A DNA stretch of 64,000 bases from Clostridia bacterium (GCA_017616435.1 JAFZYC010000078.1:29716-93715), one strand, 5' to 3'. Counted from the stretch's first letter, positions 11,559 through 45,095 are shown. Notes: generated by a model from the letters alone, not told the origin. Translations and numbers: made by a program.

Positions 11559-12605
11559 TTATTTTTCTATGTAGTCGCGGAAGTCGCCCATGATGGCATG
11601 GGGAACGGGCAGATCGATCATGGTCTTAAGACCGGGCTTCGCGTTGATGACATGGGGGATCATGTTGACGCACATCGCTATCGTACCCAGACCGCCCTCG
11701 ACCTCGGGAGTATTGGCAACATGGATAGCGGGGGTGCCTTCGATAACGACGTAATCGCCGGTATGCGTGCCTTCCATCTCGGGTTCGATCTGCTGGGGAT
11801 GGATGAGGTCGATCTTCATCTTGCCGTCGACATAGGCCTGCGCGGTCATGTTGACTCCGGCGACGTTGCCCGCGGCTGCAAAGCCGTAGGGAGCCTGACG
11901 GTCTACGCTCGTGACTATGGGAGCCATCTGCTTCTCGAACTTATCGATCTTCCAGCCAAGGGCTTCCGCGATCATGCCGGCGGACTCCTCAAAGCCTACG
12001 TGACCGGCCAGAGTGCCGTCTTCAACGCCCTTGTTGAACTCTTCGACAGTGATGCCAATGCCCTGCTCCTTCATGACGGCGGGACCGAAGGGGGAGAGGG
12101 AGTTGACGCGCTTGCACATGACGGACTCGACGTCGATCATGCAGCCGGAGAGGCAGATAGCAAGGAGGTCCATCATAAGGCCGGGATTGATGCCTGTGTC
12201 GAGTACGGAAACGCCGTTTTCCTTCGCTATACGGTCAAGCTCCGCGGCGAGCTCGGGATGCTGAGCCTTGGGATAGCTCATCTCTTCGGCAGTGGTCACG
12301 ACGTTGATCCCGTTCTCGAGAACGAACTTGATCTTCGGGAATACTGCGGGGACAAAGGAATCGGTCGCGACTATCGCGACGTCGGCAGCGCCCTTATAGA
12401 TGACAGTGTTGATATCATTGGAGATGAGCACGTCCTTGCGATCGCCCCTTTCGATGCCGAGCCGGTCGAAAATGCTCATGCCGTTGAGCTTATCCCACAT
12501 GTCGCAGACGCCTGTGATCTCCACGCCCTTTTTGCCGAGGAGCATTTTTGCAATGCCGGAACCCATTGCGCCGAAGCCCCAAATAGCAACTTTAACATTT
12601 TTCAT
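11559..12605 (-). CDS. ord: 2,4-diaminopentanoate dehydrogenase
   Basis: WGFGAMGSG Rossmann motif, TTAEEM, TGINPG, HVGF, EGGLGTIAM; first gene of the ornithine operon. Confidence 0.93.
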   Translation of the reverse strand: MKNVKVAIWGFGAMGSGIAKMLLGKKGVEITGVCDMWDKLNGMSIFDRLGIERGDRKDVLISNDINTVIYKGAADVAIVATDSFVPAVFPKIKFVLENGINVVTTAEEMSYPKAQHPELAAELDRIAKENGVSVLDTGINPGLMMDLLAICLSGCMIDVESVMCKRVNSLSPFGPAVMKEQGIGITVEEFNKGVEDGTLAGHVGFEESAGMIAEALGWKIDKFEKQMAPIVTSVDRQAPYGFAAAGNVAGVNMTAQAYVDGKMKIDLIHPQQIEPEMEGTHTGDYVVIEGTPAIHVANTPEVEGGLGTIAMCVNMIPHVINAKPGLKTMIDLPVPHAIMGDFRDYIEK

Positions 12606-12664
12606 AATTGACCTCCGTGTATGATGATTCGTTGATTGGATTAGGCATATTCTACCAAATAGAA

Positions 12665-12693
12665 ATTATATCATATCGCTTGTAGAACTGCAA
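12665..12693 (-). promoter_or_regulatory. Sigma-A promoter of the ornithine operon
   Basis: TTGCAG-17 bp-TATAAT with an extended TG. Confidence 0.75.
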
Positions 12694-12740
12694 ACCCCAG
12701 AATGCTCGAGAAAAGATTATATTTTTGACTTCCGGCATTG

Positions 12741-12769
12741 TTGCAATCGTTCGAAAAGGAAGGTATAAT
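12741..12769 (+). promoter_or_regulatory. Sigma-A promoter of the dockerin protease gene
   Basis: TTGCAA-17 bp-TATAAT, upstream of AAGGAGG and ATG 12815. Confidence 0.75.
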
Positions 12770-12814
12770 ATTGCCGCTGAGTTTTTGGCAAAGCATATAA
12801 AGGAGGACCGAAAC

Positions 12815-15223
12815 ATGAGCAAAAAGCTGATAGCGCTCATCGCCGTACTGGCAATGATTCTTTCGGCAGTTCCCGCATTTCCCGTTAGCGCGGATCCCGA
12901 GGCTGACCTGATAGGAACCGGCAGTCTCATACTTGATACAGACCCTGCTGGCGGCTACGAGGGCGATTATGTTGTTATCTACAATCCCTCGACATCCGCT
13001 TATACAAGCTATTCAACGGGCAACATGACGGGGCTTATAGAGACCGAAGCCGACCCCTATGCGAGCGTAGTCGGCTGCGACGCTGTTTCCGACGAACCCG
13101 TCAGGGTAGACGTTGACGGCTTAATTGCAAGGATCGACGCCGAAAGGCCCAAGGTAGATCCTCCCACAGCGGAGAAGACCTCGTATAACGTCGGCGACAT
13201 TAGGACGTTTACGATCAGCAATTACAGTCCCGGCTCTTCGAATCTCAGCTTCAAATGCGTTGCTAAAGGCGATCATTGCTACGTCTGGACGCCCTCCCAG
13301 AACGTTACTAACTATTATCCGCTCGACGTAATAGATCCGACGTACCCGCAGCTTATCTGCGACGAGTTCGAATCCAACTACGCACTCATGAACAGCTCGT
13401 TCGGCGATCATTCCAACGGTTCGAACGGCGACGGCAGGGTGCATCTTATGTTCTATAACATCGACGACGGATTCCAGCCCGGCGTAAGCAACAGCTATGT
13501 TGCGGGGTATTTCTCTTCATACGATTTTTCCACAAACGGTCTCCCCATGATCCACGTGGATACTTATCCCTGCATCTATTACGTCAATACCTCCGGAGAT
13601 GTGATACTGAGGCCCGAGAACTCTTTCAGCGTTTTCTGCCATGAATACCAGCATCTTATCAATTACTCCCAGACCGGCGGTATGGATTCATGGCTCAACG
13701 AATGCATGAGCGCGGCCGCGGAGGAGATCTGCTATCCCGGATCGAGTGTGATCCCCAGGATCCAGAGCTGGGAGAACTATTATTATTCAACGAACGACGA
13801 TTGGCTCGATCCTCCTCACGAGTTTGCGTACACGCCGGCTTATGAGCTTCATAACGGCTACTCCATGTACGATTGGAGCAACTATCTTGATTACGTTCTG
13901 CCCCTGTATTCGCAGGTATCGCTGTTCTCTCAGTATCTGTTTACTCATTACGGAAATCCGATATTCAAGACCATTACGCAGCAGTATACTGTCACGGACA
14001 ACTGCGTGTCTGCTATTGCCAACGCCACGGGGGCGAATACACCCGAGCTCGTTAAGAACTTCAGGATAGCGCTCGTCGCGAACGATTATGCCGCCTTTGA
14101 CGGAGAGTACGGCTTCGTTCCTCAGAACGGATACGATCCCGAAGAATATCATAACGTTGCGAACCCCTACGATCTGCTCGCACCCGTTATTTTCACCGGG
14201 AGCAGCTGTACGATCAGCGGCGGCGGAGCCATAACAGTAAAACCCATCGGCGGTGTTTACAATCCTCCGTCCAACGCCTCGTCCAGTCTTGTTTATATAG
14301 GCGTTACGCGCAATCTCAACACGGAGCCCGTGTCGCTTGAAGGCATCGAGCTTTCCGTCGACAACGCAACGGCCTATGTCGGCCATACCGTCTCGCTTTC
14401 CGTTATTCGCACTCCTTATAACGCCAACGATTACACTGTCACGTGGACCAGCACCAATCCCGCTGTAGCGACCGTGACCGGCTCAACCAGATCCGCTGTT
14501 GTAACCGGAGTATCGACCGGCAGGACAACGATCATCTGCCGCGCGACGGATAATATCACCAACAACACATATTCCGCTTTTGCCTCGGTCAACGTACTCG
14601 ACTTCCCGACTCTCGACGAAGCGCTTAACGTTCCCGGCGGGACTCTCCATTTCACCACCTCGTCCGGATATCCGTGGGAGGTAAACATCGATTCGAGCGG
14701 CAGGGCTTACGCAAACTCCACTAACGTCGGCGCAGACAGCTCTTCGTCGTCCGTTCAGACAACGATCCAGATGCAGGCGGGGGAGACTATTTCGTTCGAA
14801 TGGAGCGTCAGCAGCGAATCGGGGTATGATAAGCTCAAGTTCTACGTCAATAATACCGAGCAGTCCGGAAACATCAGCGGCAACGTTCCCTTCACGGCGG
14901 TAACTTATACGGCCCCTTCCACGGGTTCATACACTTTTAAGTGGTCATATGAAAAGGACTACTCCGTAAACAGCGGGAGCGATATGGGCTATCTTGACAA
15001 CGTTTCATACAGCGGAGACCCCGGAGTGGGCTTCCTCGCAGGAGACGTAGATATGGACGGCGACGTGGATTCTGCCGACGCCCTGATGATACTGCGCTAT
15101 GCTATGGGCGTGATCTCGCTCACCGACGAGCAGATACTCAGAGCAGAGGTCGACGGCGACGGGAACATTACTTCCGCCGACGCGATCTATGTATTGAGGA
15201 TCGCGCTTGGAATAATAGGCTGA
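12815..15223 (+). CDS. Secreted zinc metalloprotease (M30-like) with an Ig-like Big_2 domain, a beta-rich module and a C-terminal dockerin
   Basis: Signal peptide MSKKLIALIAVLAMILSAVPAFPVSA; HEYQH plus WLNE zinc motif; TWTSTNPAVATV Big_2 signature; duplicated dockerin repeat GDVDMDGDVDSADALMILRY / AEVDGDGNITSADAIYVLR. Confidence 0.85.
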   Translation: MSKKLIALIAVLAMILSAVPAFPVSADPEADLIGTGSLILDTDPAGGYEGDYVVIYNPSTSAYTSYSTGNMTGLIETEADPYASVVGCDAVSDEPVRVDVDGLIARIDAERPKVDPPTAEKTSYNVGDIRTFTISNYSPGSSNLSFKCVAKGDHCYVWTPSQNVTNYYPLDVIDPTYPQLICDEFESNYALMNSSFGDHSNGSNGDGRVHLMFYNIDDGFQPGVSNSYVAGYFSSYDFSTNGLPMIHVDTYPCIYYVNTSGDVILRPENSFSVFCHEYQHLINYSQTGGMDSWLNECMSAAAEEICYPGSSVIPRIQSWENYYYSTNDDWLDPPHEFAYTPAYELHNGYSMYDWSNYLDYVLPLYSQVSLFSQYLFTHYGNPIFKTITQQYTVTDNCVSAIANATGANTPELVKNFRIALVANDYAAFDGEYGFVPQNGYDPEEYHNVANPYDLLAPVIFTGSSCTISGGGAITVKPIGGVYNPPSNASSSLVYIGVTRNLNTEPVSLEGIELSVDNATAYVGHTVSLSVIRTPYNANDYTVTWTSTNPAVATVTGSTRSAVVTGVSTGRTTIICRATDNITNNTYSAFASVNVLDFPTLDEALNVPGGTLHFTTSSGYPWEVNIDSSGRAYANSTNVGADSSSSSVQTTIQMQAGETISFEWSVSSESGYDKLKFYVNNTEQSGNISGNVPFTAVTYTAPSTGSYTFKWSYEKDYSVNSGSDMGYLDNVSYSGDPGVGFLAGDVDMDGDVDSADALMILRYAMGVISLTDEQILRAEVDGDGNITSADAIYVLRIALGIIG

Positions 15224-15239
15224 GTAAAAGTATAATAAT

Positions 15240-15269
15240 ACGCTTCCGCTTGATAAGCGGAGGCGTTTT
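15240..15269. terminator. Intrinsic terminator between convergent genes
   Basis: ACGCTTCCGCTT-gat-AAGCGGAGGCGT-TTT. Confidence 0.7.
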
Positions 15270-15280
15270 GATACTGTCTG

Positions 15281-15886
15281 TCATGCCCAATCGTCTTTGC
15301 TTACGGGAATCCTGATGCCGCTCATTACGCCCTCGAAAGACCAAAGGAACCATTGATCCGTAGATGGCTTATGCCGCAATACCAGATACCTTTCCGAATC
15401 CGCGCCGGAGGATCGCAGGAACAGCTTAAGATAACCCTCGCTGATCTGGTCGCGGCTGTGTGCGAGTTCAAGAACGTTCACGGTGTAAGGAACGGAGGGA
15501 GTGTAGTCGTTCTGCGGGGAAGTACCCTCAAAATACGAACGCGGAACATAGTCGACGCCGTCCATGAACCTGTCCTTGATAAACGAAATGTCCATCGGAA
15601 CAAGGGGACGCGGACCTTTGATATAGTTCAGCATCTCAATAGAAGCGTCTTTGTTCTTCGGGAAAAGATCCAGCGCGGCGATAGTGAACGCGGCGACGGC
15701 ATAGGGATCCTTAAGATCGGAGCCGGGAAGCGCCATGAGCTCCGTTAGGTTTTCGGGAAGCTTGGCAAAAGCATAAGGATAGCTTTTGTTAGTCACAGCG
15801 TCCTTAGCAGCACCGCTTATACTGTCGGAAAGGCTTTTCTTCAAAGCTTTGCCTGCTTTTTTTAAAAGGTCGTCAAGGAAACTCAT
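15281..15886 (-). CDS. Conserved hypothetical protein (recalled as resembling DUF6935-type proteins)
   Basis: Pattern SYFxGxSPxNDYTP...SSGADSxR...WFLW...GIRxP...DDWA recalled from clostridial hypothetical proteins. GAGGTG precedes ATG 15886. Family name unverified. Confidence 0.65.
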   Translation of the reverse strand: MSFLDDLLKKAGKALKKSLSDSISGAAKDAVTNKSYPYAFAKLPENLTELMALPGSDLKDPYAVAAFTIAALDLFPKNKDASIEMLNYIKGPRPLVPMDISFIKDRFMDGVDYVPRSYFEGTSPQNDYTPSVPYTVNVLELAHSRDQISEGYLKLFLRSSGADSERYLVLRHKPSTDQWFLWSFEGVMSGIRIPVSKDDWA

Positions 15887-16825: not shown

Positions 16826-17929
16826 TTATTCGTCGCCTTGATCGAGGTGAGGGGGGAGAGGATCGTCCTCCGGCTCGTTTTCGCCGCGCAGCTTGACTAC
16901 TTCAGCCGCCAGTCTTCGCCTGTCCTCGCTCATTGCGGCGTAATGCTTCCTCGTGGTGTTCACGTCCTTATGGCCCAAAACATCGGCGACAAGGTAGATA
17001 TCTCCGGTCTCGCGATATAGCATAGTACCGTAAGTGCTGCGCAGCTTATGCGGAGAGATCTTTTTGAGCGGCGCCGCTATCCTTGCGTACTTCTTGACAA
17101 GGACTTCTACGGAACGAACGCTCATACGCTTTTTTTGCAAGGAGAGAAACAGCGCGTTTTCATGTCCCTCGGCGGCGATCATTCCTTCGCGATACAGCAT
17201 GTAACGAAGAAGCGCCTGCCTGACCTCCGAGCCGAAAACTATCTGCTCTTCGTTTCCGCCTTTTCTTGTGATACGTACTTCATTGGACATGAAGTTCAGA
17301 TCGTCAAGATCTATCCCGACGAGCTCGCTGATACGCATTCCGGTACCCAGAAATAATGTAATAATTGCTGTGTCTCGTATTGCGTTCGTCTGATGATATA
17401 TTCTTTGCTTTTCGGTCAAGCCGTCGCCGTTTTCAACGGTTTCGAGCAGTTTTTCCATCTCGTCCGGCTCAAGCCTTATTATAGGCTTTTCGTGAAGCTT
17501 GGGAGTATCGACGAGGGCGGGGGCGTTGTTTTTGATGCGTTCCTTTTTGTAAAGATATTTGAACAAAGCCCTGATAGCGGAAAGCTTGCGCGCTTTCGCG
17601 CGTTCGCCGTTGATGACGAGCTCATCGGAATCTTCGTCGGGCTGGTACAGGGATACGTATTCAAGATAACATTCTATGCAGACAGAATCGATCTTTTCGA
17701 GCACAGCATAATCTATCTGCCGCATGGATTCCAAACCTTCGCAGATATCCGTACCCAAAAGATACGTAAAAAAGGTTTTAAGATCGACCGCATAGCCGTA
17801 TCGCGTCATGATACCGGTCGTAAGCTCGATACCGCGAAAGAAGTCCGTACAGCATGGCGGAAGCGTTAATACGAGCTCTCGCAGCTTGAGCGTGTATTTC
17901 TTTGTCTTTTCGATAGAGTATTCGCTCAT
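16826..17929 (-). CDS. Chromosomal tyrosine recombinase, XerC/XerS-like
   Basis: Full catalytic set: GMRISEL (R), RKGG (K), HKLR (HxxR), LGH, RKHY (Y); 367 aa; RBS AAGGAGG. Confidence 0.93.
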   Translation of the reverse strand: MSEYSIEKTKKYTLKLRELVLTLPPCCTDFFRGIELTTGIMTRYGYAVDLKTFFTYLLGTDICEGLESMRQIDYAVLEKIDSVCIECYLEYVSLYQPDEDSDELVINGERAKARKLSAIRALFKYLYKKERIKNNAPALVDTPKLHEKPIIRLEPDEMEKLLETVENGDGLTEKQRIYHQTNAIRDTAIITLFLGTGMRISELVGIDLDDLNFMSNEVRITRKGGNEEQIVFGSEVRQALLRYMLYREGMIAAEGHENALFLSLQKKRMSVRSVEVLVKKYARIAAPLKKISPHKLRSTYGTMLYRETGDIYLVADVLGHKDVNTTRKHYAAMSEDRRRLAAEVVKLRGENEPEDDPLPPHLDQGDE

Positions 17930-17956
17930 GGGGAAGCCTCCTTATGTGCTGAGCTC

Positions 17957-17985
17957 ATTATAACACAACATTGCGTTAAAGACAA
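17957..17985 (-). promoter_or_regulatory. Sigma-A promoter of the recombinase gene
   Basis: TTGTCT-17 bp-TATAAT with an extended TG. The -35 sits in the spacer of the palindrome. Confidence 0.7.
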
Positions 17986-18001
17986 GTTTAACGCAATGTT
18001 G
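17966..18001. repeat. Perfect 15-6-15 inverted repeat; candidate recombinase-binding/dif-like site
   Basis: CAACATTGCGTTAAA-GACAAG-TTTAACGCAATGTTG, 36 bp upstream of the recombinase start. The repeat is certain; its function is inferred. Confidence 0.85.
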
Positions 18002-18024
18002 AATACGCTTTTTGGTAAAATATA

Positions 18025-18513
18025 TTATTTAAGGTCTTCCGAAGGATCTTCGGGCTTATTTTCGGGTTCAAGCTGTTTCTTGAGTTTTTTGATCTCGCTT
18101 CTCGCAAGTTCGTCGCAGCGGTTGTTGAATTCGTTATCTGAATGACCTTTGACCTTATGCCAGCTCACCTTGTGAATCGCAGTAAGCTGGATCATGCGTT
18201 CCCACAGATCGCGATTCTCGACCGGATGTTTATTCGATTTTTTCCAACCGTTGTTTTCCCAGTTGGTCAGCCATCCCTTTAAGAATGAATCGCTCAGATA
18301 CGCGCTGTCCGTATAGATATCGACCTCGCAGCTTTGTTTCAAAGCCTCAAGGCCTTTTATGGCTGCAGTGATCTCCATGCGGTTGTTAGTGGTTTCCGCC
18401 TCGCCGCCGGATATCTCTTTAGCGACTGTCTTGTACATCAGTATCGCCGCCCAGCCGCCTATGCCCGGATTTACCGAGCAGGCGCCGTCGGTATAGATCG
18501 TGACCTTTTTCAT
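18025..18513 (-). CDS. rnhA: Ribonuclease HI
   Basis: YTDGAC, TNNRMEITA, YTDSAY, KVKGHS, NNRCDELA. Start at ATG 18513 overlaps the nitroreductase stop. Confidence 0.95.
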   Translation of the reverse strand: MKKVTIYTDGACSVNPGIGGWAAILMYKTVAKEISGGEAETTNNRMEITAAIKGLEALKQSCEVDIYTDSAYLSDSFLKGWLTNWENNGWKKSNKHPVENRDLWERMIQLTAIHKVSWHKVKGHSDNEFNNRCDELARSEIKKLKKQLEPENKPEDPSEDLK

Positions 18514-37946: not shown

Positions 37947-39092
37947 TTACCTCTTAACTGCAAACTCTTTTGCGAGCCTGCGCGCTTCTGAATCGGCATA
38001 CAACAGCGCGTCGATATCGTTGATCGCGATATCTTCTATCATGCCCATAACATGCTCTACGCAGTCTGCGATATCGGTAAAACGCAGCTCTCCCTTTATG
38101 AACCTGTCGACAGCGACCTCGTTCCCGGAATTGTACGCGATGGGAAGACTGCCGCCCTTTTCAAGCGCCCTGTACGCCATTGGGATCGCAGGGAATCTGT
38201 CGGTATCGGGTTCAAAGAACGAAAGACCGTTAAAGGAAGCGAGATCGAGCGGCGCAGCGGGAGACGGGATCCTGTCGGGATATGTCAGAGCGTACTGAAT
38301 CGCGAGCCTCATATCGGGAACGCCTAGCTGAGCAATTACGGAATTGTCGCAGAACTCTACCATTGAGTGCACTACGGACTGCGGATGGATGAGTACGGAG
38401 ATCGACGAAGCATCCATATCGAAAAGGAATGCCGCTTCCATTATCTCAAGTCCCTTATTGAACATAGTAGCCGAATCGATGGTGATTTTGCGCCCCATGT
38501 TCCAGTTGGGATGCTTCATCGCCATTTCCGGAGTGACGTCCTTGAGCCTTTCAAGCGGAGTTTCACGGAACGCTCCGCCGGATGCGGTAAGGATAATCCT
38601 TTTTACCTCTTCCTTCCTGCCCGCTGTAAGGCATTGGAATATGGCGCTCTGCTCGCTGTCAACGGGCAGTATTTTTCCCCCGCCGCAATTTAGTGCTTCG
38701 GCAACGAGACGCCCGGCGCAGACGACGCTCTCCTTATTCGCAAGCGCGACCGTTTTGCCCGAGCGCAGCGCCTTTATGAGCGGGAACGTTCCGTTAAAGC
38801 CGCTGACTCCGTTGACGACTATATCTATGCCGTCCATTTGGGCGATATCCCACACAGCTGTTCCCGATATTATCTCCTTATCGGGGAAGGCTTCACGGAC
38901 TGCCGCAGCGGCTCTGTTGTCGAAAACGCCCACGATCTTCGGATCGTATTCGAGGATCTGCTTAATTCCGGCATCCGCATTTGAGCCGAATATGAGCGCA
39001 TAAATACCGAACTCATTCCTGTGCATACTGCAAACGGAGAGAGTCTGACTGCCTATAGATCCGGTCGAACCGAAAACCGCTACGTTCTTCAT
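37947..39092 (-). CDS. dxr: 1-deoxy-D-xylulose-5-phosphate reductoisomerase
   Basis: GSTGSIG, LANKES, PVDSE, KHPNWNMG, NKGLE, HPQSVVHS. Confidence 0.97.
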   Translation of the reverse strand: MKNVAVFGSTGSIGSQTLSVCSMHRNEFGIYALIFGSNADAGIKQILEYDPKIVGVFDNRAAAAVREAFPDKEIISGTAVWDIAQMDGIDIVVNGVSGFNGTFPLIKALRSGKTVALANKESVVCAGRLVAEALNCGGGKILPVDSEQSAIFQCLTAGRKEEVKRIILTASGGAFRETPLERLKDVTPEMAMKHPNWNMGRKITIDSATMFNKGLEIMEAAFLFDMDASSISVLIHPQSVVHSMVEFCDNSVIAQLGVPDMRLAIQYALTYPDRIPSPAAPLDLASFNGLSFFEPDTDRFPAIPMAYRALEKGGSLPIAYNSGNEVAVDRFIKGELRFTDIADCVEHVMGMIEDIAINDIDALLYADSEARRLAKEFAVKR

Positions 39093-39098
39093 ATCAGA

Positions 39099-39905
39099 TC
39101 AACGAATAAAGTAATGGAACACGGCGGCGACTACCGGCGCGAAAACCATCGCGCTGTCGAGCCTGTCCATGACCCCGCCGTGCTTGGGGAATATTGAGCC
39201 GAAATCCTTGATACCTGCCCAACGCTTGAACGTCGAGGCAAACAGATCTCCGAGCTGGCCGACAACCGCGCCGACAAGTCCGAGGCCTACGAGCCAAGCC
39301 CAGTGAATGTCGAGCCCCCAGAGCTTCTGGAGGAAGTATACGAGCAGTCCGCCGATGGGGCCCCCGACAAGACCGGCAACGAAGCCTTCGACTGTCTTCT
39401 TGGGACTTATTGCAGGGCAAAGCTTATGCTTGCCGAACTTCATACCGAACAGATAGGCGTTGTTGTCCGCCATGCTGGGACCGGCAAATACCATGAGCAG
39501 AGCCGCCCTAGATACATCGGTCTTATCAAACCCGAAGAACCCGAAGCAGAGCAGCAGCGCGAGCGGATAGATCATTGTGAAGCCGGTAGCGACGGTATCC
39601 TCTGTCTTCCTGTTCTTGTTGAGGATCCTGTCGAAAAGGATCCAGAGGAAGCAAACGACATAGAGCAATGGCAGATATTTGGGAACAAGATACAGAAGGA
39701 GATACTGCAGACCGCCCATGAGGAACAGCGGTACAAGGCAGATGTTGACATCCTTCTTTTTGAACATGCGGCTCATCTCTATCACCGCAACTACCGAGAA
39801 AGCGGTAAGAGCTATGACCTGCACCCATCCGCCGAATATGACTATGAGCGCTAGTATCGCAAGCAGCCCGATTGCTACGATCGTCCTTATTCCAAGCTCG
39901 CTCAT
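39099..39905 (-). CDS. cdsA: Phosphatidate cytidylyltransferase
   Basis: SPKKTVEG, GDLFASTFKR, KDFG..HGGVMDRLDS. Confidence 0.94.
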   Translation of the reverse strand: MSELGIRTIVAIGLLAILALIVIFGGWVQVIALTAFSVVAVIEMSRMFKKKDVNICLVPLFLMGGLQYLLLYLVPKYLPLLYVVCFLWILFDRILNKNRKTEDTVATGFTMIYPLALLLCFGFFGFDKTDVSRAALLMVFAGPSMADNNAYLFGMKFGKHKLCPAISPKKTVEGFVAGLVGGPIGGLLVYFLQKLWGLDIHWAWLVGLGLVGAVVGQLGDLFASTFKRWAGIKDFGSIFPKHGGVMDRLDSAMVFAPVVAAVFHYFIR

Positions 39906-44651: not shown

Positions 44652-45095
44652 TTAAAAACAAAGGAAATACAGAACGACTTCTCTGTCTTTTGCGTTTTTA
44701 TAGATATAACCGTCTGTCTCAAATCCTAGCTTTTTATGAAGAGCGATGCTTGCCTGATTATCGATCCGCACCTGATCGATGATTACACGATAACCGAGCG
44801 ACCTTGCTTTTTCGATCATCAGTTTCACCGCTTCAGACGCATACCCCCTCCCTCTTTCTTCCGGGAAGATCTCAACTCCGAGAGAAGCCGAGTGTTCGCT
44901 GCGTTCAAACAATGATACGCTTCCGACTACGGCGTCGTCCATCGTAATTGCAAGCATCTCGAAGTACTTGCAGTTATAGGACTTGGATACCCATTTTTTG
45001 ATAAAGGAGAGGACTTCTTCAATCGAGGAGTCAGGCATCTGATTTATGCGCAGATTGTCTGCGTCGTTGTTGTTGAATGGGCGTAATATGATCAA
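44652..45095 (-). CDS. GNAT (RimJ/RimL-like) N-acetyltransferase
   Basis: IILRPF, VGSVSL, ERGRGYASEA, NQASIALHKKLGF. Likely TTG start at 45095 behind GGAGG. Confidence 0.88.
   Translation of the reverse strand: MIILRPFNNNDADNLRINQMPDSSIEEVLSFIKKWVSKSYNCKYFEMLAITMDDAVVGSVSLFERSEHSASLGVEIFPEERGRGYASEAVKLMIEKARSLGYRVIIDQVRIDNQASIALHKKLGFETDGYIYKNAKDREVVLYFLCF

Follow-up and report, generated by a model that had tools for sequence, protein, structure and literature searches.

The resolution of chromosome dimers belongs to the core housekeeping functions, and textbook accounts assign it in Firmicutes to the XerCD pair (CodV/RipX) or, in Streptococcaceae, to XerS. Systems with a single recombinase appear in reviews and primary papers as XerS/difSL, XerH/difH, the archaeal XerA and, since 2022, XerL. 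Sites of the XerCD-dependent dif type were predicted in Firmicutes by Kono et al., a prediction that failed for two Clostridium genomes. Our literature search, the coverage of which was partial so that absence is not proven, found no account of a clostridial single-Xer system. Here we describe a locus on a stretch of 64,000 nucleotides (hereafter the window) from a Clostridia bacterium (GCA_017616435.1, JAFZYC010000078.1:29716-93715), in which a perfect palindrome directly precedes the gene of a tyrosine recombinase, P0001. We consider it very probable (about 0.85) from the sequence comparisons below that the palindrome is the dif site of this chromosome and that the adjacent gene encodes a single Xer-type recombinase acting on it.

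The palindrome consists of two arms of 15 bases around a centre of 6 bases, 36 bases in total. The left arm (17966-17980) reads CAACATTGCGTTAAA and the right arm (17987-18001) TTTAACGCAATGTTG, with an arm complementarity of 100%, and the central region GACAAG (plus strand, 17981-17986) is asymmetric. It is located between two minus-strand genes, rnhA and the recombinase open reading frame (ORF). A first-pass annotation, made by a model from the sequence alone, had proposed a perfect 15-6-15 repeat with identical arms and an asymmetric 6-bp spacer lying 36 bp before an intact recombinase gene; the coordinates and the complementarity were confirmed, and the gap between the site and the recombinase ATG was measured as 36 bp. 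The site has a GC content of 36%, compared with 56.6% genome-wide, and occurs once in the genome that holds the window (G000). [quoted passage not shown] Queries with an E. coli-type dif and a B. subtilis-type dif had no match in the genome at up to 7 mismatches. Palindromy by itself was dropped as evidence, as the genome contains 47 comparable perfect inverted repeats (arms of at least 12 bp, 6-bp spacer), most of them resembling terminators with an A-run, a GC stem and a T-run. The palindrome is distinct from these in its AT-rich composition, its uniqueness in the genome, its conservation and its position. The coordinates of the site and of the features around it are collected in Table 1.

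Table 1 Features of the locus, in window positions
Feature	Position	Strand	Basis
Probable dif-type recombination site	17966..18001	none	perfect inverted repeat, single in genome, conserved, at skew maximum in relatives
P0001, Xer-type tyrosine recombinase, XerS-like, 367 aa	16826..17929	-	PF00589 1.1e-33
Predicted sigma-70-type promoter of the recombinase gene	17957..17985	-	promoter scan 10/12 with TG
Shine-Dalgarno sequence AAGGAGG of the recombinase gene	17937..17943	-	read from sequence; kept in genus relatives
rnhA (RNase HI), upstream neighbour	18025..18513	-	PF00075 4.3e-42; NF001236 210.5 bits, above cut-off
Local replichore junction signals	12428..15281	none	own-contig skew maximum and convergent gene switch

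With regard to the assembly, contigs of independent gut metagenome runs span the site without differences. The sequencing runs in which the region was found are gut metagenome DNA, and no RNA-seq run is among them. One further contig of 316 nt from another sample (run X3) matches the window over 47 bp only (17957-18003, the site plus the -10 box) and has unrelated flanks. By eye, these flanks resemble those of a genome of the same genus (G011, locus L011); in that case the core of the site would be identical between related species whose flanks differ.

The adjacent gene encodes a protein with the hallmarks of an active tyrosine recombinase. The residues R199, K223, H294, R297, H320 and Y330 are invariant in alignments of 13 and of 40 orthologs and align with the catalytic residues of XerD, which bears out the intact R-K-H-R-H-Y set noted at first pass. 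The pattern R-K-H-R-H/W-Y and the two-domain fold of core-binding and catalytic parts are present in the sequence and in the structural model, respectively. The AlphaFold model has a mean predicted local distance difference test score (pLDDT) of 76.8, with low confidence in the loop that carries the tyrosine (321-333). Its best matches among solved structures are XerD, XerA and XerH; recombinase-fold repressors (MrpR, YopR, SroF) and Cre, at rank 36, are distant fold matches. By sequence, XerD is the closest solved structure with 86 bits, compared with 35 bits for XerH (5jjv). Public databases label the protein only as "tyrosine-type recombinase/integrase" or as "XerD".

The family placement of P0001 rests on profile scores. 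Among NCBIfam models, XerS (NF003462, an equivalog) scores best with 187.8 bits, followed by XerC (151), XerD (147) and archaeal XerA (140), and XerS is the top-scoring family for all 13 orthologs tested. The curated cut-offs are 267 bits for XerS, 335 for XerC (TIGR02224) and 330 for XerD (TIGR02225). P0001 is thus placed below the first and far below the other two, and the genome contains no further Xer-like gene, as an XerC/XerD pair would require. The earlier designation as XerS-like therefore holds with respect to the best-scoring model and not with respect to its cut-off.

Compared with the described systems, the locus resembles in its layout the XerS/difSL system of Streptococcus and Lactococcus (PMC1914069, PMC2965235), where a single recombinase of about 360 residues is encoded next to its own site at the terminus; the preference of all tested orthologs for the XerS model and the presence of FtsK in the genome are further likenesses. 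The differences lie in the site, the host and the profile score. Whereas difSL is 31 bp long with imperfect, unequal arms and a central region reported as 11 bp (PMC5357621), the clostridial arms are perfect over 15 bp around 6 bp and unrelated in sequence, and the site differs in sequence and geometry from the difSL half-sites quoted in that paper. The host belongs to the Clostridia and not to the Streptococcaceae, and the score is below the XerS threshold. We therefore describe the system as working like XerS/difSL, yet outside XerS by curated threshold and with another site sequence and geometry. The XerH/difH system of Helicobacter and Campylobacter (PMC2731167, PMC5241119) likewise relies on one recombinase, comparable in length, and has its site close to the gene at a GC-skew peak, with arms that end in an A-tract beside a centre of roughly 6 bp. 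In contrast to the identical clostridial arms, however, those of difH are imperfect and their asymmetry orders cleavage, and the sequence similarity between the recombinases is weak (the 35 bits to 5jjv against 86 to XerD). With XerL/dif of the Legionellales (PMC9765430), the locus shares a single recombinase, long uninterrupted inverted-repeat arms and a phage-like element with a dif mimic, but in Legionella pneumophila a distance of more than 400 kb separates dif from xerL, against 36 bp between site and gene here.

The two-enzyme systems, XerC/XerD-dif of E. coli and CodV/RipX-dif of Bacillus subtilis, have in common with the clostridial site a 6-bp centre and a low-GC, intergenic, single-copy position at the terminus, and XerD is the closest structure to P0001 by sequence and by fold. 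The arms of relatives (TGCGCAAAA) resemble the XerC arm (TGCGCATAA): the first-pass comparison had found 6 of 11 positions shared between the window arm and the E. coli XerC arm, an arithmetic that is correct for a match that is weak, and the arms TTTTGCGCATA of relatives agree with it at 8 of 11 (E. coli dif sequence according to PMC2731167). These systems differ in using two enzymes instead of one, in having arms specific for XerC and for XerD instead of identical ones, and in lacking the linkage of gene and site. Identical arms, an asymmetric spacer that alone gives direction and a single recombinase are found in Cre-loxP of phage P1, although Cre is a distant fold match and the clostridial site is chromosomal and at the terminus. 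The loxP site has arms of 13 bp and a spacer of 8 bp, and Cre is a phage protein serving plasmid maintenance.

The position of the site relative to the replication terminus was examined in three closed (single-contig) relatives of the same order (G023, G033 and G028), over 400 kb around each orthologous site. The cumulative GC-skew maximum was located 48, 312 and 1293 bp from the site, with a clean change of sign on either side. The coding-strand bias likewise flips; in G028, for instance, the plus-strand share falls from 90% to 10%. The distance between the site and the point opposite dnaA amounts to 52 kb in G023, 18 kb in G033 and 79 kb in G028, equivalent to 0.7-3% of genome length. The interval in which the polarity of GGGNAGGG, a motif resembling the FtsK orienting polar sequences (KOPS), switches brackets the site in G023 and G033 and likewise in G010, a genome of the same genus, a signal that is confounded with GC skew. 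The first-pass annotation had named a site far from the skew-defined terminus and unconserved as a refutation; instead, the site lies at that terminus in the three closed genomes and is conserved. On the window's own contig (C25, 118.5 kb), the skew turns from positive to negative at about 40 kb. The first-pass annotation had cautioned that gene orientation does not flip at the site as expected at a terminus. This applies to the immediate neighbours; on a larger scale, the coding-strand bias changes from 64% plus-strand on the left of the site to 28% on the right, and the genes converge at about C25:44.95 kb (about window 15.25 kb), some 2.7 kb off the site, where plus-strand genes end at 44938 and minus-strand genes begin at 44996 (window 15223-15281).

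An ortholog of P0001 is present, one per genome, in 37 of the 41 relatives. Its identity to P0001 is 75-90% in members of the same genus, 55-63% in those of the same family and 49-54% in those of the same order. That the identity tracks taxonomy and each genome has one copy points to vertical descent of the gene. A scan with one genome per species yielded at least 599 further ortholog loci, labelled as Christensenella, Christensenellaceae, Caldicoprobacterales and many Lachnospiraceae (Blautia, Roseburia, Enterocloster, Hungatella); one relative is named Clostridium sp. CAG:138 in the database. The first-pass annotation had suggested a search for a conserved arm-6-arm motif upstream of orthologs. 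In 70 of 110 loci, a site built in this way lies no further than 900 bp upstream of the gene, with distances that reach about 800 bp. Their consensus is AACTATTCGTTAAA-CTTGTC-TTTAACGAATAGTT. The 6-bp spacing in all 70 recovered sites follows a search pattern that itself demanded a 6-bp spacer. The bases of the spacer C-T-T-G-T-C are conserved in 64, 65, 61, 66, 57 and 46 of the 70 sites, respectively. Changes in the outer parts of the arms tend to be paired between the two arms: this genus combines ACATTGCG with CGCAATGT, and outside it the pair ACTATTCG and CGAATAGT is an example. The order rnhA-site-xer is kept in many relatives and genera, and where another gene than rnhA lies upstream (L028, L029, L030) the site is still present and at the terminus. 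Of 151 genomes of the order, 135 contained a 24-position site pattern with one mismatch allowed, usually in a single copy, and a reversed-pattern control gave mostly zero matches. This longer pattern with its control replaced the loose pattern CGYWAAA-N6-TTTWRCG, which was rejected as too noisy across the order, as terminator-like hairpins match it. In one genome (G118) the loose pattern had 12 matches (e.g. C7:46905-47769), mostly variants of CGCAAAATCAGGATTTTGCG and some of them clustered within 1 kb, which have the appearance of a palindromic repeat family with no relation to dif.

The spacer points toward the gene in 45 of the 70 loci and away from it in 25. Since it is kept in both orientations to the gene, its conservation is not due to the promoter or the -35 box. 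It belongs to the site proper, as one would expect of the region in which a recombination site exchanges strands. No rule for the spacer orientation could be derived, which varies relative to replichores and to the gene. In two genomes from another family of the order, a second dif-like site was observed. In G104 (C9:105027-106346; L175 1528-1551 and 2824-2847), an ORF of 372 codons lies between two such sites about 1.3 kb apart, and G155 (C23; L176 1528 and 2802) has the same arrangement. The paired spacers are reverse complementary (CGCGAG/CTCGCG and TGCAAC/GTTGCA), and the sites are therefore inverted repeats. If the 372-aa ORF is taken to be the xer ortholog, the pair could form an invertible xer cassette, which might explain the differences in spacer orientation between lineages. 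In G016 (C1; L171-L173), a full site at 38868-38899 is followed after 227 bp by a lone left arm ACTATTCGTTAAAC at 39095-39110, directly before the xer promoter, and this extra arm may have been left behind when an element was inserted there or excised.

In the window, the site overlaps the predicted promoter of the recombinase gene. On the minus strand, a -35 hexamer TTGTCT (17985-17980) is separated by 17 bp from the -10 hexamer TATAAT (17962-17957), which is part of an extended -10 element TGnTATAAT. The -35 hexamer is made up of five spacer bases and one arm base, as the promoter scan places it across the boundary of spacer and arm in agreement with the overlap reported at first pass, and the -10 hexamer lies just outside the arm. 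The distance between spacer and -10 is identical in genus and family relatives.

The genome of the window is a draft of 102 contigs that is 91% complete. Apart from P0001, it contains four matches to PF00589, which are two near-identical Tn916-type integrases, one phage-type integrase and one fragment. The two Tn916-type genes are located on separate contigs (C83:2877-3383 and C92:120103-120609), which suggests that a single conjugative or integrative element is present twice. Among the relatives, the XerD model scored above its cut-off in 2 of 41 genomes and in none of the 13 of the same genus. With the other matches being of the element type or a fragment and XerD mostly absent from relatives, P0001 is the sole Xer-like enzyme in this assembly; the check for further xerC or xerD genes that the first-pass annotation had called for returned none. 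The genome encodes one protein of the FtsK/SpoIIIE family with a gamma domain. The two relatives with a true XerD above cut-off in addition to the P0001 ortholog are G029 (C1:970080-970943 and 994272-995324) and G025 (C2:478935-479798), and no palindrome was seen upstream of the P0001 ortholog of G029. These XerD-carrying relatives may have two systems side by side or represent a transition. Taken together, the position at the terminus, the conservation and the sole Xer enzyme support the initial proposal of an XerS-like module for dimer resolution.

Several observations weigh against the interpretation as a dif site with its single recombinase. Recombination at the site, as well as binding by the recombinase, the positions of cleavage, the dependence on FtsK and the autoregulation, is what we infer from sequence comparisons. 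The draft state of the window genome means that its own terminus cannot be placed globally. On its own contig, the maximum of the cumulative skew is found at C25:42143 (about window 12428), 5.5 kb off the site rather than on it. G010, the only long contig of the same genus, has a weak GC skew that peaks at the site only locally, the maximum over 400 kb being 66.6 kb away; this skew was not counted as support, and only the polarity switch of GGGNAGGG brackets the site there. In many Lachnospiraceae, no recognisable site was found within 700-900 bp of the ortholog, and the linkage of gene and site is thus not universal. Furthermore, P0001 stays under the XerS equivalog cut-off, and an xerC or xerD gene might lie in the part of the 91%-complete genome that is missing from this assembly.

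Three other explanations were considered. The hairpin could be only a transcription terminator of rnhA or an RNA-stability hairpin, with the recombinase gene nearby by coincidence. The stop codon of rnhA ends at 18025 (minus strand), the palindrome starts 23 nt after it, and the rnhA transcript would run into it; as RNA, the palindrome folds with about -18 to -24 kcal/mol (z-score -3.3), and perfect hairpin terminators are abundant in the genome. Nevertheless, the stem is AT-rich and no T-run, that is no U-tract in the RNA, follows the hairpin, as the first reading of the sequence had already observed, whereas an intrinsic terminator has a G+C-rich stem with a U-tract after it. The terminator scan gave no call. 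Unlike the loops of terminators, the loop sequence is conserved through the order and beyond, and the site occurs at the terminus in either orientation and also without rnhA upstream (L028, L029, L030). The caveat that the hairpin could terminate rnhA is contradicted by these features of tract, loop and position, and we regard this explanation as highly improbable.

A role of the palindrome as operator only, bound without recombination by the recombinase-like protein or another dimeric regulator as known from recombinase-derived phage repressors, would agree with the overlap of site and -35 box and with the presence of MrpR, YopR and SroF among the distant fold matches. It is very unlikely in view of the six catalytic residues that are invariant across the family, and of a site that is reversed in 25 of 70 loci and up to about 800 bp away from the gene; the exact position at the GC-skew switch in three genomes is likewise unexpected for an operator. 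Gene and site might also be the integrase/att module of a mobile element that came to lie near the terminus by chance. One copy per genome with an identity that tracks taxonomy, and a flanking rnhA conserved in many genera, speak against such an origin, as do the lack of a second att copy or an element border in the genome and the fact that its element-type integrases are different proteins. This possibility, too, has hardly any probability left.

For a dif site served by one enzyme, the following course of events is the most likely. One recombinase monomer would bind to each of the identical arms of 13-15 bp. Two sites would be present only when homologous recombination has joined the sister chromosomes into a dimer, and the pair would be gathered at the closing septum, probably by the one gamma-domain FtsK of the genome, which probably also sets the timing. 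Four monomers of P0001, acting as a homotetramer, would then swap strands across the asymmetric GACAAG centre. Because the asymmetric spacer fixes the sites of a dimer as direct repeats, the product would be two monomers and not an inversion. Because both arms are the same, strand exchange cannot be ordered by arm asymmetry, in contrast to XerH-difH, and in this the site is akin to loxP and to the dif of XerL. As the -35 box lies inside the site in this genus and in many relatives, the bound recombinase would probably repress its own gene, and the overlap suggests a simple self-regulation.

We are inclined to see in these loci a distinct family of single-recombinase Xer/dif systems, to be placed beside XerS, XerH, XerA and XerL, with the locus described here as a typical example; this appears somewhat favoured by the data, less firmly than the assignment of site and enzyme itself. 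Such a family would be the main dimer-resolution system of an order that apparently includes Christensenella and CAG-138, and would reach into Lachnospiraceae and other Clostridia. Its dif would be loxP-like, combining arms of the same sequence with an asymmetric centre of 6 bp that is strongly conserved, and the location of the site on its own promoter in many lineages would make the system self-limiting. The one-enzyme system appears to be common in gut Clostridia; if this reading is true, it serves, in place of XerCD or XerS, a large part of the Clostridia of gut and rumen. As an exact, sequence-defined marker of the terminus, the site would help to orient drafts and metagenome-assembled genomes from these lineages, and a tool for marker excision based on it would suit organisms that are hard to handle genetically.

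Filamentous phages without an integrase appear to mimic the site. An exact search of viral contigs for the full site gave no match, and a search with arm plus spacer matched two contigs. One of them (IMGVR_UViG_3300027800_000111, 5259 bp; L178) carries at 1703-1720 the sequence CTATTCGTTAAA-CTTGTC and then a second, degenerate arm, and encodes a Zot-like morphogenesis protein. No integrase-like ORF was found among the five of its ORFs that were screened against PHROGs; the only ORFs (of at least 50 aa) with the length of a typical integrase encode 336 aa, whose best PHROG hit is weak and of unknown function, and 524 aa, with no PHROG match. The mimic has the form expected of an att site that borrows the Xer enzyme of the host, and the contig is a candidate Xer-hijacking phage. 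The dif site would be the likely attachment site for integrase-less phages of these bacteria.

Upstream of the site, the start codon of rnhA is likely at 18513, because the RNase H domain begins at this internal methionine (MKKVTIY); the longer ORF with a GTG start that reaches 18663 is probably not real. The likely ATG overlaps the stop codon of an upstream gene of the nitroreductase family by 4 bases (18510-18513), which suggests translational coupling of the two genes.

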